Position numbers and translations under genes: made by a program. Positions 7,571-16,254 of a DNA stretch of 64,000 bases are shown piece by piece. How positions within the stretch are numbered: the stretch's first letter is position 1; each line of letters begins with the position of its first letter. This DNA is from Candidatus Poribacteria bacterium (GTDB lineage: Bacteria; Poribacteria; WGA-4E; WGA-3G). The stretch is taken from positions 704,001 through 768,000 of the forward strand of contig OZ242029.1 of the NCBI GenBank assembly GCA_965205015.1. Reading direction: 5' to 3'. Below the pieces are notes generated by a model that saw only the letters and a program-made list of their open reading frames with translations, had not been told where the DNA came from and ran no database searches.

Positions 7571-7696
7571 TGTGAGTTCGACTTAAGGATTTCAAGGAAT
7601 TCACCACGATATACCATGTTTCTCAAGGACTTGGAACAGACATATTTAATTGGTGCTTTCCAAACACATCCCGTTGAAGGAGATTTTGCCGTGAAC

Positions 7697-10600
7697 ATGC
7701 GAGTCAAACGTTTCTTTTTCATACTCACCCTCTTATTGAGTTTTTTGCCGCTGGGTTTTGCCCAAGATCTACTACCGAGGCCGATAGTACGGATCATCTA
7801 CTTTTCTCCAAATGACCGCGCTCCGCAGCCAGACATAGATGAAAAGATAGATAGGTTAATAAAGGATGTGCAGGCATTTTACGCACAACACATGGAAAAC
7901 CACGGGTTTGACAGAAAAACTTTTCTGCTTGAAACCGACGCACAGGGAAAAGCTATCGTCCATCACGTGAAGGGCCGGTTCAACCACACATATTATCAGA
8001 ATAACTGGAGGAAAGCTGAGAGAGAATCTCTTGAACAGTCTGACAGACGAAACGCCTCTATCAATTTTATTGTGTTAGATGTAAACCTCGAAGGAATAAC
8101 GCCATGCGGTGGGGGCAGTGGAAATGGGCATGTTGGAAGAGCATTTGTTACCACCCAACCAGATTGTTTTAACGTTCCAATTATTGCGCATGAACTCGGG
8201 CACGCCTTTGGACTCTGGCACGATTACCGCCCCGTTGGCGGCAACTGGAAACGTGCCTTAGGTATCAGGGACCCTATGATAACATCTTTGTGCGCTGCGG
8301 AGTGGTTGGATGTGATTTCCGCCTTTAATGCCCCCCAAACCCCGTTCAATCAGAGAACAACAATTGAGATGCTTGGGCCGCCAACCCTCGTGGCAGCCCC
8401 GAACACCTTCCGTTTCCGCTTTAAAGTGCAAGATTCGGATGGCCTCCATCAGGTGCAACTGCACATGCGGGATCCCTTGATTGGACACGCTGGTGACTCT
8501 TTGTTGGATTATAAGGGATTAAAAGGAGTCCGCAGCAGTACCCTTGAATTTGTTAGCAGTATCCTACTGGGGCCGACGACGCATGGTGTAGTGATTGAAA
8601 GCATTGATGTGCATGGATACACACAATCCCAGAATTATCCAGTTGACCTGACTCCGCTATTTCCTCCGCCTGAAGTTGTGTCTATACCAGATGCGAATTT
8701 GGCATCGGCAATCCGGCGAGAGATTGGCAGTTCAATCACGACGCGCACGCTGCTGAATTTAACCTCTCTTGCTCTCCCTACTCGCAGAATAACAGATCTT
8801 ACCGGTCTTGAACATGCACACAATCTACTCAGCTTAAATCTTAGGCGTCAGCACATTGGTGGAGAGGGGTTTTCGGTATTAGATTTGTCACCGATTGGAA
8901 ATTTACCCCGACTGTCACGGCTGGACCTTTCTCACAATTCCCTCACGGATGTCGCACCCCTCTCGGGATTAACATCACTGAGAGAACTGTGGCTTTCTGA
9001 CAACAATATCACGGATGTCGCACCCCTCTCCGAATTAACATACCTGACACGACTGTGGCTTTCTGACAACAATATCACGGATGTCGCACCCCTCTCCGAA
9101 TTAATACAACTGAGAGAACTGTGGCTTGATGGCAACAATATCGCTGATGTCGCACCCCTCTCGGGATTGACACAACTCACAGAACTGCGGCTTTCTGGCA
9201 GAAATATCACGGATGTCGCACCCCTCTCAGGATTAACACAACTCACAGAGCTGGAGCTTCCTTACAGCAATATCACGGATGTCGCACCCCTCTCAGGATT
9301 AACACAACTGAAATACCTAAGGCTTTCTTACAGCAATATCACGGATGTCGCACCCCTCTCAGGATTAACACAACTGAAATACCTGGGGCTTCATCGCAAC
9401 AATATCACGGATGTCGCACCCCTCTCCGAATTAACACAACTGAAATACCTAAAGCTTTCTGACAACAATATCACGGATGTCGCACCCCTCTCCGAATTAA
9501 CACAACTCACAGAACTGCGGCTTTTTGGCAACAATATCGCTGATGTCGCACCCCTCTCCGAATTAACACAACTGACAAGGCTGTACCTTGATGGCAACAA
9601 TATCGCTGATGTGACACCCCTCTCCGAATTAACACAACTGAAATACCTATGGCTTCATCGCAACAAAATCACGGATGTGACACCTCTCTCGGGATTGACA
9701 CAACTCACAGAACTGTACCTTGCTGACAACAATATTACTGATGTGGCACCCCTCTTGGGATTAACACAACTGATAGAACTGAGGCTTCAGACTAACCCAC
9801 TGGGCTATGCCTCTATCCACACACACATTCCTGCCATGCAGGCAAAAGGGATCCCAATCCGTTTTCACAATGTTGTGCATCCCGCACTCCTGAAGGTCTC
9901 AGGCGATGCACAGACAGGATCGGTGGGGAATCCTCTGGCAGCTTTTATTGTCGAAGCACAGGATGAACGCGGCCAGCCAATGCCTGACGTACGCGTCAAG
10001 TTTGCAGTTGAGGCAGGTGGAGGCACGCTCAACCCAACAATCACTGCGACCGATGCCGATGGCAAGGCACAAACAATCTTGACACCCGGATGGACTCCTG
10101 ACACGACTACTATTCGCGCAACTGCCACAGGTATTACAGCATACGTCCGTTTTACAGCGACCGCCACCGTGCTGACAGATCGCCGTGCTGAAGATGTCAA
10201 TGCGGACGGTGTTGTTGATGTGGAGGACCTCGTCCTTGTGGCATCCAGTTTCGGGGCGGTGCCGACTCCCAGCACGCTTCCCGATACGGACATCAACGAT
10301 GACGGCGACATCAATCAAGAAGATGTCGAATTGGTTTTAGCGGCACTTGAGGCAGCACCCGCTGCGCCTTCCCTGGATACGCAGTGGACTGTATCAAGCC
10401 TTCAGCGGTGGATCGCAGAAGCGAAGCAACGGAATATAGGTGATGCTACTTTTCAGCGAGGCATAAAAATACTTGAGAAACTGCTCGCAGATTTGCTCCC
10501 GAAACAGACACTACTTCTCGCCAACTATCCGAACCCGTTCAACCCGGAGACGTGGATACCCTATCAACTGTCAGAACCAGGAGATGTGATAGTGCATATC

Positions 10601-10795
10601 TATGGGGTGAACGGCGTATTAGTGAGGACGTTGGGATTGGGGCATCAACTTGCGGGAACGTATCAAAGCCGGACGCGCGCGGCGTATTGGGACGGACACA
10701 ATCAACTGGGGGAACCTGTGGCAAGTGGTGTCTATTTCTATACATTGTCTGCCGGCGATTTCACGGCGACGCGGAAGATGTTGATACGGAAGTAG
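7697..10795 (+). CDS. Secreted internalin-like LRR protein: zinc metallopeptidase (HELGHAFGLWH), 13 LRRs, Ig (Big_1), dockerin-like and C-terminal FlgD/T9SS-like domains
   Basis: HExxHxxGxxH; 22-aa LRRs; DVNADGVVDVEDL; LLANYPNPFNPETWIPY...VASGVYFY; start moved to MRVKR after a GAAGGAG SD. Confidence 0.85.
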   Translation: MRVKRFFFILTLLLSFLPLGFAQDLLPRPIVRIIYFSPNDRAPQPDIDEKIDRLIKDVQAFYAQHMENHGFDRKTFLLETDAQGKAIVHHVKGRFNHTYYQNNWRKAERESLEQSDRRNASINFIVLDVNLEGITPCGGGSGNGHVGRAFVTTQPDCFNVPIIAHELGHAFGLWHDYRPVGGNWKRALGIRDPMITSLCAAEWLDVISAFNAPQTPFNQRTTIEMLGPPTLVAAPNTFRFRFKVQDSDGLHQVQLHMRDPLIGHAGDSLLDYKGLKGVRSSTLEFVSSILLGPTTHGVVIESIDVHGYTQSQNYPVDLTPLFPPPEVVSIPDANLASAIRREIGSSITTRTLLNLTSLALPTRRITDLTGLEHAHNLLSLNLRRQHIGGEGFSVLDLSPIGNLPRLSRLDLSHNSLTDVAPLSGLTSLRELWLSDNNITDVAPLSELTYLTRLWLSDNNITDVAPLSELIQLRELWLDGNNIADVAPLSGLTQLTELRLSGRNITDVAPLSGLTQLTELELPYSNITDVAPLSGLTQLKYLRLSYSNITDVAPLSGLTQLKYLGLHRNNITDVAPLSELTQLKYLKLSDNNITDVAPLSELTQLTELRLFGNNIADVAPLSELTQLTRLYLDGNNIADVTPLSELTQLKYLWLHRNKITDVTPLSGLTQLTELYLADNNITDVAPLLGLTQLIELRLQTNPLGYASIHTHIPAMQAKGIPIRFHNVVHPALLKVSGDAQTGSVGNPLAAFIVEAQDERGQPMPDVRVKFAVEAGGGTLNPTITATDADGKAQTILTPGWTPDTTTIRATATGITAYVRFTATATVLTDRRAEDVNADGVVDVEDLVLVASSFGAVPTPSTLPDTDINDDGDINQEDVELVLAALEAAPAAPSLDTQWTVSSLQRWIAEAKQRNIGDATFQRGIKILEKLLADLLPKQTLLLANYPNPFNPETWIPYQLSEPGDVIVHIYGVNGVLVRTLGLGHQLAGTYQSRTRAAYWDGHNQLGEPVASGVYFYTLSAGDFTATRKMLIRK
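8930..9790 (+). repeat. 66-bp coding tandem repeats (13 LRR units)
   Basis: gatgtcgcacccctctc(c/g/a)ga(a)ttaac recurs every 66 bp. Confidence 0.9.
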
Positions 10796-10997
10796 GATGC
10801 AGCAGCGTTTCATTGATGTATCCGAGTTTGACAAATATAACGCGACGGTGTACAATTTAACAAAGCCATTTGGAGGAATCTCCTGCTCAATATTAACCTC
10901 AGCTAACGTTTCGGTTCTAAACTGAGCTCATATTAATCACGCGCAGTATTTAGGAAGAAGGGGATAAAAATGAATGCAACTATTGAATCAACGATAG

Positions 10998-11276
10998 GTC
11001 AGTGACCCAAACCTAAAGGATTGGGACCTGTCCACTACGCCAACCAAGGCTATAGGGTGGACGAGGGCAACTCATTGACTACCGTAAAATATCGCAGATA
11101 CAGGAGTTGTGGTAGACTCCAACTATGTCAAGAAAACGCTATACCGAACTGGTAGTAGGTATAGTTAAGGATACTCCCCTCGTCTTTGTCCACTTGGTAT
11201 CTGTGATCGGGAAGGGGCAACATATACCCGCTATTAGCGGAGGGTCTCCGAAAGGTCATTACCTGTTTTCTTGACA
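10998..11276 (+). ncRNA. HEARO / omegaRNA-like structured RNA
   Basis: GTCAGTGA/TCATTGAC closing stem, GGATACTCCCC..GGGAAGGGGCAACA..TACCC motifs typical of HEARO, long-range pairings TGTCAAGAAAAC/GTTTTCTTGACA and GCAGATAC/GTATCTGT. Confidence 0.7.
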
Positions 11277-11484
11277 GCACCGGGTCAGGTCAAAGTAAGT
11301 TCTGGTGACAGCAGAAACGAAACGAAGCAGCCTACTGGGAAGAATCGCCAAAGCAGCACCGTGGCGAAAAAACGGACTGCACTTTTCTAGAAGTTTCTTT
11401 TTTTAACCTGGACCTTTGGTCCTTTCCAAGAGGGCGGATTTTCCTCCCAAACTTAAAAGTTTGGGTTTCCAATCCGTAAATCTG
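10998..11484 (+). mobile_element. Non-autonomous IS200/IS605 (IscB/IsrB-type) element, no nuclease or transposase ORF
   Basis: Near-identical subterminal hairpins CCCAAACCTAAAGGATTGGG (11006-11025) and CCCAAACTTAAAAGTTTGGG (11446-11465); starts GTCAG; no target duplication; excision restores the host ORF. Confidence 0.75.
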
Positions 11485-11712
11485 ATGAATTAACAACCGA
11501 TCCGAAAACACCCTCGGAAGGGAAGCAGATGATCCCTCATATCGCAACAGAACAAGCAGATTCAAAACAAATAGCACTTATGGACTATGCCGAGGAACAA
11601 CTTCGGAAATTAGCAACTTCTCGCGGATTAGATTGGGAGGCTATGACCGATGAGGACCGCATAGATTTTGTTGATAACCTCGTCCACGAGGACCGTAAAT
11701 AAGGAGTTAATA

Positions 11713-12750: not shown

Positions 12751-12901
12751 CGGGCAGGCACAAGACCTGAGGATACGGGTAGGCACAAGACCTGAGGATA
12801 CGGGTAGGCATAAGACCTGAGGATACGGGTAGGCACAAGACCTAAGGATACGGGTAGGCACAAGACCTGAGGATACGGGCAGGCACAAGACCTGCCCCTA
12901 C
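12751..12901. repeat. Six tandem 25-bp units derived from a GTAG REP
   Basis: cggg(t/c)aggcacaagacctgaggata x5, then a final unit ending in the full REP gcccctac; no spacers. Confidence 0.9.
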
Positions 12902-13422: not shown

Positions 13423-16254
13423 TTACTTCAGAATTACCATTCGACGGGTGCGTTCAAAACTGCCAGCGGAAAACGTGTAGAAATAGACACCGCTGGCGAC
13501 CTTCGTTCCATACCGGTCTCTCCCATCCCAGTACGCCGCTTTCTCTTGGCTCCGATAACTGCCCGGCTCCTGTAACCCAATATCCAACTGGCGTACAAGT
13601 CCTCCTCGGACATCATAGATTTTCAGAACAACCTCTGCCGCCTCCGCCAGATCGTAGGGAAACCACGTCTCCGGGTTAAAAGGATTCGGATAATTCTGGA
13701 GAATCGTTGTCTGTTTAACATATCCGAGCATCGAGAGCAAATGCGAGGACGGATCCACAGAAAATGGGACATCCGCAGATCGGAACCCGAGATCAATTGG
13801 GTTATAGATAAACGCCGACCCCGAGTTATCACCAGCATTGTCGCTACCGAAGGCACCGACGATAGCGAATGCCCCTCTAATCGCAACAGATGCCCCGAAC
13901 AGGTCCGACTGTCTCGCGCCAGCGGCTTCAATCCGGCGTTTTTCTACCCAAGATAACCCATCTCGCAAAAAGGAGTAAGCCGCCCCTTTATCAAGTTGTA
14001 ACGCTGGATCGTCATGGAGATCTGCCAACGGGTGATTATCCTTCCACGCGCCGACGATTGCAGTATCTTCATGAATTGCGACGGCTGAACCGAATTCATC
14101 CCCGGTGTCGGCATCGCTTGCGCCTAACTTTGCCTGTTGTACCCAAGCGTTTCGCGTCTCCACAAAAATATAAGCCGCTCCCACATCATCAAGGTGTCGA
14201 TCTTCTTTAGGTGCGCCAATGATAGCCGCCCCTTTGGTGAGATTGACGGAGTAACCGAATTCGTCTCCGATGCTAATATCATTTGGAATCAGTAGGAGAC
14301 CTGGAGTCCATGTGCGACCATTGCGCGTAAAGAGATAGGCGGCACCCGAATCAGGTCCCGCTGCGTCACTTCGATAGGCACCGATGAGCGCATTATCTTC
14401 ATAAACACCCACAGCAAAACCGAACAGATCCCCGGGAACGGCACCTCGGTGCGTCAATTTCGCTTGTTGTGTCCAAGAGGCACCACTCCGGACAAAGACA
14501 TAAGCGGCACCCGAATCCGTGCCGATTTCGTCTTTCCCGTAGGCACCGATGATAGCGGTATCCCCGTGTACCGCGACGGCTGACCCAAACCGATCAAAGA
14601 TTTCGAGGTCGTCCCCGATCAATCTCGCCTGCTGAATCCACTCCTCGCCGACCTTTACAAAAACATAAGCTGCGCCGGCTTCGGGTCCTGCATCATCAAC
14701 ACCGGGCGCGCCAACAAGGACAGTTTCGCCGTCCATTGCCACAGCATTCCCAAAGAGATCCCCAACCTGTGCATCGTCAGCGGTGAGTTTTGTGCGCTGT
14801 AGCCAGAGGAGACCGCTGCGCTCAAAGATGTATGCGGCACCCGCGTTAGGTGCGATGTCATCATCTTGTTGTGCCCCAGAGATAGCAAAGTTACCGCTTA
14901 TGGCAACAGATACGCCGAACTGATCCTCTGAAGCGGTTTCGCCATCACTCAACTTGGCACTTTCCACCCACGAGGCATCCTCCCTTTGTTCAAAAATATA
15001 GGCGGCACCCGAGGATAATCCACCGGCATCTTGCTTCGGTGCCCCAGCGATCACTTCGTTTTTGTTTGCATCGATCGCGACAGCGAATCCGAGCTGGTCG
15101 CCAGCCCCTCTATCCGCTGCGACTAACTTTGTGTGCTGGTTCCAGAAGGGCGGCTCATTTTGTGTAAAGATATACGCCGCACCCACGACATCTTCTCCAA
15201 CGTTCGCCCCCGTCGCCCCAATGACAGCTGTATCGCCTCTGATGTCAACAGAAACACCGAAAGAGGACGCGCCATCAGGGTCAATCGGAATCATACGGAT
15301 ACGGATACGGTTTCTTTTTTGCTCCCATTCGGTACCTTCGCGCTTATAGATGTAAGCGGCACCACTTCCTCTATTTTTCGGTGAGGTCGCAATGGCAAAA
15401 TCCCCATCAACATCAACGGCGTATCCAAAATTATCTTCCGCTTCGGTATTGTTTCCGATAAGCTTCGCCTGAAATGCCCACCCGAATTGGTTCCGGACGA
15501 AAATATAAGCAGCACCGGCATCATTTCCGGCTTCATCCTCCCGAGTCGCCCCAACAATAGCGGTGTCCCCATCAATCCCAACGGAAAAGCCGAAATACGC
15601 GAAACTGTCAGGATCCGGGGCAATGAGTTTGGCGGTTTGATTCCAATTTTCTCCCGTCCTCTCAAAAACGTAGACGGCACCGCAATCTGCCAAAGGTTGG
15701 TTTGTACGATGTGCCCCAACGAGGACGGTATCCCCATCAATCGCTACCGAGATACCGAAATAATCAGCACGCGTTCCGTCAGACGCAATCAGTTTGGCTT
15801 GTTCTATCCATTCAGTTCCTTGTCTCCTAAAGATATATGCGGACCCTGAGTTCCTTCCGACCCCATCCTTCCTCGGTGCACCAACGACGGCGTAATCGCC
15901 ACTCATTGCGAGTCGCGTGCCGAATTCGTCTCCGCCTGCTGCATCGCTGGTGGTCAGTTTTTGATGCTGAACCCACCCAGTTTCAGTGCGCAGAAAGACC
16001 TGGACGGATCCAACATTTACGCCGAAGTCGTTGTCATCTTTCGGGACACCTACCATTGCAGAATCACCGCTGATACCGACACTCGCCCCGAGATTGTCCT
16101 GGAGGACCGCAGCACTCGTGTTGAGTTGCACTCGGTCGGCACTGCTTTGCAGGACCAAGCCGACGCCGAAGAACAAGATTAATATGGTTATTTGTAATTT
16201 TCTCAATTCTCTCTCCCTCACTATTGAACAGTACCTGATGCGCTGAACCGACAA
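13423..16254 (-). CDS. Secreted FG-GAP repeat (integrin-like beta-propeller) protein with C-terminal FlgD/T9SS-like domain
   Basis: About 14 FGxSVAIxGDxAxVGA..GAAYIF repeats; LQNYPNPFNPETW...VASGVYFY; start uncertain. Confidence 0.88.
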   Translation of the reverse strand: MSVQRIRYCSIVRERELRKLQITILILFFGVGLVLQSSADRVQLNTSAAVLQDNLGASVGISGDSAMVGVPKDDNDFGVNVGSVQVFLRTETGWVQHQKLTTSDAAGGDEFGTRLAMSGDYAVVGAPRKDGVGRNSGSAYIFRRQGTEWIEQAKLIASDGTRADYFGISVAIDGDTVLVGAHRTNQPLADCGAVYVFERTGENWNQTAKLIAPDPDSFAYFGFSVGIDGDTAIVGATREDEAGNDAGAAYIFVRNQFGWAFQAKLIGNNTEAEDNFGYAVDVDGDFAIATSPKNRGSGAAYIYKREGTEWEQKRNRIRIRMIPIDPDGASSFGVSVDIRGDTAVIGATGANVGEDVVGAAYIFTQNEPPFWNQHTKLVAADRGAGDQLGFAVAIDANKNEVIAGAPKQDAGGLSSGAAYIFEQREDASWVESAKLSDGETASEDQFGVSVAISGNFAISGAQQDDDIAPNAGAAYIFERSGLLWLQRTKLTADDAQVGDLFGNAVAMDGETVLVGAPGVDDAGPEAGAAYVFVKVGEEWIQQARLIGDDLEIFDRFGSAVAVHGDTAIIGAYGKDEIGTDSGAAYVFVRSGASWTQQAKLTHRGAVPGDLFGFAVGVYEDNALIGAYRSDAAGPDSGAAYLFTRNGRTWTPGLLLIPNDISIGDEFGYSVNLTKGAAIIGAPKEDRHLDDVGAAYIFVETRNAWVQQAKLGASDADTGDEFGSAVAIHEDTAIVGAWKDNHPLADLHDDPALQLDKGAAYSFLRDGLSWVEKRRIEAAGARQSDLFGASVAIRGAFAIVGAFGSDNAGDNSGSAFIYNPIDLGFRSADVPFSVDPSSHLLSMLGYVKQTTILQNYPNPFNPETWFPYDLAEAAEVVLKIYDVRGGLVRQLDIGLQEPGSYRSQEKAAYWDGRDRYGTKVASGVYFYTFSAGSFERTRRMVILK

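Follow-up and report, generated by a model that had tools for sequence, protein, structure and literature searches.

A probable gene-less derivative of an IsrB transposon in a Poribacteria genome, with a putative omega-RNA scaffold and an empty allele in a related strain

Results

Overall organization of the locus

The window, i.e., the whole 64-kb stretch of DNA that was analyzed, contains a discrete 487-bp insertion on the plus strand that interrupts a small host open reading frame (ORF). The features of the locus are listed in Table 1. The element was found to be single-copy in the window, since a blastn search returned only the self-match and all other matches were 22 nt or shorter. The hairpins near its two ends are each palindromic and show 85% identity to each other; the coordinates and the matching subterminal hairpins given in a preliminary description of this DNA, which was based on the sequence alone, were exact. 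The longest stop-to-stop frame within the element was 56 aa. A tblastn search with IsrB proteins revealed no IsrB in the whole 64-kb window, and isrB, tnpB and tnpA were all absent from it. Both strands of the element folded better than shuffled sequences (z-scores of -3.44 for the plus strand and -3.11 for the minus strand), although this signal is weak when taken alone.

Two large secreted-type proteins, with leucine-rich repeats and FG-GAP-like repeats, are encoded in the neighborhood at 7616-10795 and 13423-16254 (minus strand), and both end in a C-terminal sorting domain of one type. The read depth over 10500-10600 was very high, which indicated that this sorting domain is common in the samples. 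In addition, a tandem repeat (12751-12894; 25 bp, 5.8 copies, 94% matches) was observed in the spacer after a Gfo/Idh/MocA oxidoreductase gene.

Table 1. Coordinates of the element, its predicted parts, the interrupted host gene and two related TnpB-only elements. Positions are those of the window unless a locus is named.
Feature	Position	Strand	Remarks
Sigma-70-like promoter of the small host gene (TTGACA, 17 nt, TACAAT)	10828..10856	+	11/12 consensus matches; consensus match only
Start of the interrupted host ORF (9 codons + 1 nt)	10970..10997	+	last ~16-20 nt are the presumed omega-RNA guide
Non-autonomous IS200/IS605-family (ISC1/IsrB-type) transposon, 487 bp	10998..11484	+	skipped exactly by the empty allele
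Putative IsrB-type omega-RNA scaffold (HEARO-like), full length	10998..11255	+	R1 match, covariation, HEARO-like GUCA start
5'-end hairpin	11006..11025	+	also stem-loop 2 in the RNA; corresponds to the transposon right-end hairpin when the window minus strand is taken as top strand
Extra hairpin	11138..11165	+	alignment A2 columns 141-183; helix 9, 8/8 compensatory pairs
Remnant of the first ~60 nt of an L090/L092-type isrB frame	11270..11330	+	start codon lost; nhmmer mapping, alignment A2
3' end common to IsrB-carrying elements (last isrB codons and transposon left end)	11378..11484	+	nhmmer mapping
3'-end hairpin	11446..11465	+	inside a longer imperfect palindrome, 11435-11476; stems covary among copies
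ATGA, part of the flank and also present in the empty allele	11485..11488	+	transposase target (TCAT on the other strand), presumed IsrB TAM
Remainder of the host ORF	11485..11702	+	only a 57-aa piece, starting at 11529, can still be called
TnpB-only IS605-type elements	L124:1501-2957; L125:122-1577		L124 on the minus strand

Identification of a natural empty allele

Deletion of 10998-11484 created an ATG-started frame of 81 codons, and the join remained identical when both boundaries were moved by 1 base. The left boundary at 10998 (GTCAGTGACC...) was sharp in all aligned copies, whose upstream flanks were unrelated, and GTCA formed the 5' boundary in every copy aligned.

The same join was found in nature, in publicly available reads: contig record 25 of run X4 (1122 bp, depth 248) spans window positions 10544-10996 (40 differences in 453) and 11484-11700 (8 differences in 217), and these two segments are contiguous in the record. 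At the joint, position 10996 is followed by 11484 with zero letters between them, so that 487 bp are missing with a 1-nt ambiguity. A related strain carries the exact natural empty allele, without target duplication or scar. This result was consistent with the preliminary description, which had claimed that removal of the element restores an 81-codon ORF with no target duplication; the uninterrupted allele that it proposed to look for in relatives was found in the form of this contig. As filled and empty alleles are both present in related strains, the predicted target, in which ATGA follows the 5' flank, can be read directly instead of being guessed.

The host gene product belongs to a conserved family of ~80-aa proteins with RGLDW and HEDR motifs. 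Many paralogues were found in Poribacteria, and the family extends to Latescibacterota, Nostoc and other groups (of 201 candidate stretches, 195 were confirmed); a Pfam search with the small protein gave only sub-threshold chance matches. In the window lineage, the ATGA target arises from five additional codons in the host allele, whereas the 11 homologues compared have CTGA at this place. An insert of 502 bp with TGAAT repeat borders had been considered as an alternative, because 11 uninterrupted homologues (L001-L010 and L080) are five codons shorter here, and it was ruled out by the 487-bp empty allele of the X4 contig. L001-L010 were themselves rejected as true empty alleles, as only ~210 nt of them match the window, at 76-79% identity and with no shared neighbors.

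Related elements in Poribacteria and their link to IsrB

A DNA search of 175 Poribacteria genomes (E<=1e-8), in which at most three candidates were scored per genome, revealed related copies in 57 of them. Both ends could be defined in 31 related elements, which were divided into 25 gene-less elements (385-580 bp) and six long elements (1263-1280 bp); the gene-less form has spread to many sites across the phylum. The long elements share both ends with the window element, and their 5' part is followed by a gene for a protein of ~340 aa. Three of these ORFs were tested, and all three matched the Pfam family RRXRR (PF14239) with E values of 1e-28 to 7e-30, while the HNH domain was absent. One of the proteins matched the IsrB structure PDB 8DMB over residues 3-275 (E 1.8e-27), with a weaker match to TbaIscB. 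Eight such IsrB genes showed 65-99% mutual identity. The absence of an HNH domain from the linked genes points to IsrB, and not IscB, as the partner type; of the two nucleases named together in the preliminary description, IsrB is retained and IscB dropped.

To delimit the shared parts, a profile of the gene-less elements was compared with the long elements using nhmmer. The first 197-272 nt of the long elements matched, corresponding to the window from 10998 to 11230-11330, as did the last 65-95 nt, corresponding to the window from 11378-11403 to 11488. As the gene-less profile matches both ends of the long elements, the gene-less form represents an internal deletion of an IsrB element. By this comparison, the window element appears to keep both transposon ends and a complete omega-RNA scaffold and to have lost ~800 bp of isrB. 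We consider it probable that the window element arose from an ISC1-type IsrB transposon of the IS200/IS605 superfamily by a deletion that removed the gene, and that it would be usable as a guide-RNA element in trans.

Structure and conservation of the RNA scaffold

The first ~260 nt of the element are homologous over their full length, and in the same orientation, to the leaders directly upstream of the IsrB genes. A covariance model, R1, was built from seven IsrB-linked leaders only (alignment A3), with the window excluded. R1 gave one match in 64 kb, at 10998-11255 on the plus strand, which covered model positions 1-212 of 212 with a score of 106.7 bits and a rough E value of 2.2e-27. All 25 of the gene-less relatives were also matched (76-177 bits), and all 212 positions were kept. 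Blocks that are invariant in alignment A2 are common to the gene-less copies and the IsrB leaders.

We found that the fold is backed by compensatory changes. When 32 leaders were aligned, the consensus structure comprised 62 pairs, and 91.4% of its cells were paired, compared with 79.3% in shuffles. This percentage is somewhat inflated because one alignment served both to derive the structure and to count the pairs, and the compensatory counts are the stronger evidence. Changes on both sides were present in 34 of the 62 pairs, including four of the seven pairs of helix 2, the hairpin near the 5' end. None of 500 shuffles reached the observed values, and the covariation score of 0.363 was in sharp contrast to scores of 0.055-0.080 in slid controls. 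The frequent G-U pairs fit only the plus strand, as they would be mismatches on the other strand. Together with the R1 match, these changes support the earlier proposal that the element encodes an omega-RNA.

The window and 24 of 25 gene-less relatives contain a 43-nt hairpin insertion (A2 columns 141-183; the extra hairpin in Table 1), which was missing in the six IsrB-linked leaders of A2 and in the gene-less element L121; some gene-less copies carry a second extra hairpin. The 8/8 covarying pairs in this gene-less-specific hairpin point to structural selection after gene loss and suggest that the gene-less form spread in its own right.

The same assignment was examined with the Rfam model HEARO (RF02033), a check that the preliminary description had put forward, and there it was not borne out. 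No match was found in the window at the gathering threshold of 83 bits, nor at E<=10. Among ten relatives, six were matched, each from the first base of the element and all below the threshold: the IsrB-linked leaders L091, L096, L097, L089 and L092 scored 22-36 bits (E 5e-4 to 0.9), and the gene-less copy L081 scored 23.8 bits (E 0.4). HEARO and the window RNA agree in their GUCA start, in the first closing stem and in the second hairpin. By the Rfam cut-off, the window RNA lies outside HEARO; by descent, it belongs to the same type of RNA.

The element could also be an inert hitch-hiker, a PATE-like remnant that is moved by TnpA via its ends and whose omega-RNA is unused and kept only by descent. 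The missing HEARO match would agree with this, as would the extra hairpins that distinguish the scaffold from the IsrB-linked ones, which might not be tolerated by IsrB, and the fact that no IsrB partner is encoded in the window. However, conservation of every scaffold position in all gene-less copies goes far beyond the needs of transposase ends, the compensatory changes extend to helix 9, which is specific to the gene-less elements, and the invariant blocks are common to IsrB leaders. We regard an inert remnant as unlikely and favor a scaffold that would still serve as a guide RNA.

Transposon ends and TnpB-type relatives

We also found two TnpB-only elements, L124 and L125, that share the 3' end of the window element at 83-87% identity, together with the hairpin at the other end. 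Their TnpB (393 aa; OrfB_IS605 and a Cas12f-like TNB domain) is encoded on the opposite strand. As these TnpB relatives lie on the opposite strand, the top strand of the transposon corresponds to the minus strand of the window; by this comparison, the transposon left end and the TCAT target are predicted at the right side of the element as drawn here, and the right end at 10998. It is probable that one transposase serves both the IsrB-type and the TnpB-type elements. A Y1 transposase, TnpA (PF01797), was found in 154 of 175 Poribacteria genomes, and IsrB genes are likewise common in the phylum. In one tnpA element, L128, the ends are organized in a similar way.

The common end hairpins and 3' end of L124 and L125 could be taken as evidence for a right-end guide RNA (reRNA) element of the TnpB type, with the window minus strand as the sense strand. 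In contrast to this reading, the TnpB elements do not match the interior of the window element beyond the hairpins, and the BLAST matches are confined to the hairpin; R1 scored only 18 bits on L124 and L125, within model positions 3-76, and gave no match on L128. The many G-U pairs that fit the plus strand only also speak against it, and a reRNA element deserves hardly any credence beside an IsrB-type scaffold on the plus strand.

Flanking sequences and the position of start codons

The ATGA motif was found at the aligned place after 29 of 32 elements; it lay 2 nt further downstream in two others, and the remaining element had ATGG instead. Similarity among the copies stops just past ATGA on the 3' side. 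The left flanks share nothing among the copies, as expected for a guide derived from the flank, and no motif was found on the left side. ATGA is assigned to the flank, as target site and presumed TAM, because the empty allele keeps it. The arrangement claimed earlier, with the guide drawn from the 5' flank and the TAM directly after the element, agrees well with the unrelated 5' flanks and the recurrent ATGA. Target duplication as a family trait was ruled out: in 31 elements, the left and right flanks of the same element had a mean similarity of 9.48, compared with 9.25 for mismatched pairs, and were no closer to each other than the latter.

The family members lie mostly between a ribosome-binding site and a start codon, in the sense direction. 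The flank ATG opens at least 60 codons in 23 of 31 related elements (loci L081-L122), compared with 23.1% of 627 control ATGA sites taken from the same loci (binomial p 2.5e-9). A start-like ATG, defined as one preceded by no more than 15 open codons in the rebuilt empty site, was found in 16 of 31, compared with 7.3% of the same 627 controls (p 7e-11). A Shine-Dalgarno-like word was observed in the left flank of 14 of 30 elements (L110 was left out). The window copy is an exception, as it lies nine codons inside the host gene. In the parts of the published ISC1/IsrB/IS605 literature searched, no relevant passage on start-codon placement was found; the part of the preprint by Meers et al. (10.1101/2023.03.14.532601) that bears on placement describes an orientation bias relative to upstream genes, which was linked to guide-RNA production.

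The enrichment at start-like ATGs would suit a leader element that has been co-opted by the host, inserted between ribosome-binding site and start codon, and regulates the downstream gene. The window copy, however, is inside a reading frame and truncates its gene, the presence of the element varies between related strains in a manner typical of selfish insertion, and the ATGA target and the need for host transcription also explain the start-codon pattern. We therefore give almost no credit to a regulatory leader and retain the mobile guide-RNA element as the preferred reading.

The position of most copies also bears on whether the insertion is a self-splicing group I or group II intron in the small gene, such that the 81-aa protein is still made. 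Exact restoration of the frame upon removal of the element and its highly structured nature are what an intron would show. In contrast, the Rfam group I and group II intron models gave no match in the window, even at E<=10, and the homology to IsrB leaders and the IS605-type ends are those of a transposon; most copies are outside reading frames, just before start codons, where splicing would be pointless. An intron is extremely improbable, and the IsrB-type transposon remains the interpretation used below.

Discussion

The element described here does not represent a new kind of system; the kinds to which it belongs, namely ISC1/IsrB elements, the N|ATGA target and PATE-like omega-RNA elements, are known. 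It is, on the other hand, unusually well documented by its empty allele. The closest comparison is with ISC1-1_MA of Microcystis aeruginosa. As described in the available part of Kapitonov et al. 2016 (PMC4810608), this element has a 5' GTCA, N|ATGA insertion without duplication, and empty loci; ISC1 elements have hairpins near both ends, and TnpB-only counterparts share their termini and carry TnpB on the antisense strand. Mobilization of ISC1 by a Y1 transposase in trans is given there as a prediction. As far as that part of the paper goes, the window element is similar in its GTCA start, N|ATGA insertion, lack of duplication, empty locus, end hairpins and antisense TnpB relatives. The differences from the same description are that it has no isrB (487 bp compared with ~1.3 kb), that its host belongs to Poribacteria, and that its scaffold contains an extra hairpin.

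A second comparison is with DtIsrB (PDB 8DMB). According to the portion of Hirano et al. 2022 (PMC9581776) available to us, DtIsrB has an NTGA TAM and nicks targets with an ATGA TAM, and its RNA, which is large and structured, carries the guide at the 5' end. Relative to this account, the genes linked to the scaffold in the relatives match 8DMB, and ATGA, the sequence that begins the 3' flank in the window, is among the TAMs active with DtIsrB. Unlike DtIsrB as presented there, the window element encodes no protein, and the likeness rests on the linked proteins, the ATGA and the RNA layout.

With respect to gene-less elements, the accessible part of the 2023 preprint of Meers et al. states that PATE-like IS200/IS605 elements encode omega-RNAs and places a HEARO-like RNA at the transposon right end; standalone omega-RNAs that work with IscB are attributed to Altae-Tran et al. 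2021 in the part of PMC9581776 that cites them. As in these partial accounts, the window element is gene-less, with no coding capacity for a transposase or a nuclease, as in a PATE, and has IS605-type ends and a guide scaffold that would need a nuclease from elsewhere. It is unlike the PATEs (TnpB) and the standalone omega-RNAs (IscB) of the same passages in that its scaffold is of the IsrB type, in that it belongs to a large family in one phylum, and in that a natural empty allele was found. Among the papers retrieved on IS605, TnpB, IsrB and IscB, none mentions Poribacteria.

Based on these results, we can propose how the element might function. TnpA (Y1) made elsewhere would excise it as single-stranded DNA and paste it next to TCAT/ATGA without duplication. 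A transcript from the host-gene promoter would read through the 5' flank into the scaffold, with part of the flank serving as the guide; the promoter-like site listed in Table 1 faces the element and could supply such a transcript, in which flank and scaffold are joined. IsrB from a full-length element would then bind the RNA of the gene-less element, and the complex would recognize the empty allele, in which the flank is followed by ATGA, and nick it, favoring recopying of the element into that site. We infer transcription, processing, trans loading by IsrB, nicking of the empty allele and trans mobilization by TnpA. IsrB is a nickase, and we know of no experimental demonstration that a transposon is retained by nicking.

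The locus offers a clean natural IsrB-type guide-RNA element without a nuclease gene, whose known target would ease a test of trans-loading and nick-driven retention, and the gene-less form is widespread in one phylum of uncultured sponge symbionts. The start-codon placement gives a sharper form to the published proposal that these guide RNAs rely on transcription by the host. In an extended and speculative form, which we consider improbable, the gene-less elements of Poribacteria form a set of dispersed trans-acting guides that are fed by host promoters, given their sense orientation and their position at host start codons or directly ahead of them; many loci would then program a small number of IsrB proteins, and guides over ribosome-binding regions could affect host expression or approach domestication.

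Further copies of the family were visible in other read sets. In runs X1-X3, contigs at ~2.5x the local depth matched the element with ~10% differences and skipped 106 nt (11291 is joined to 11398; window 11292-11397), and these contigs probably represent further family copies of shorter length within these samples. At 10998, loose read ends in the same runs revealed copies with different left flanks.
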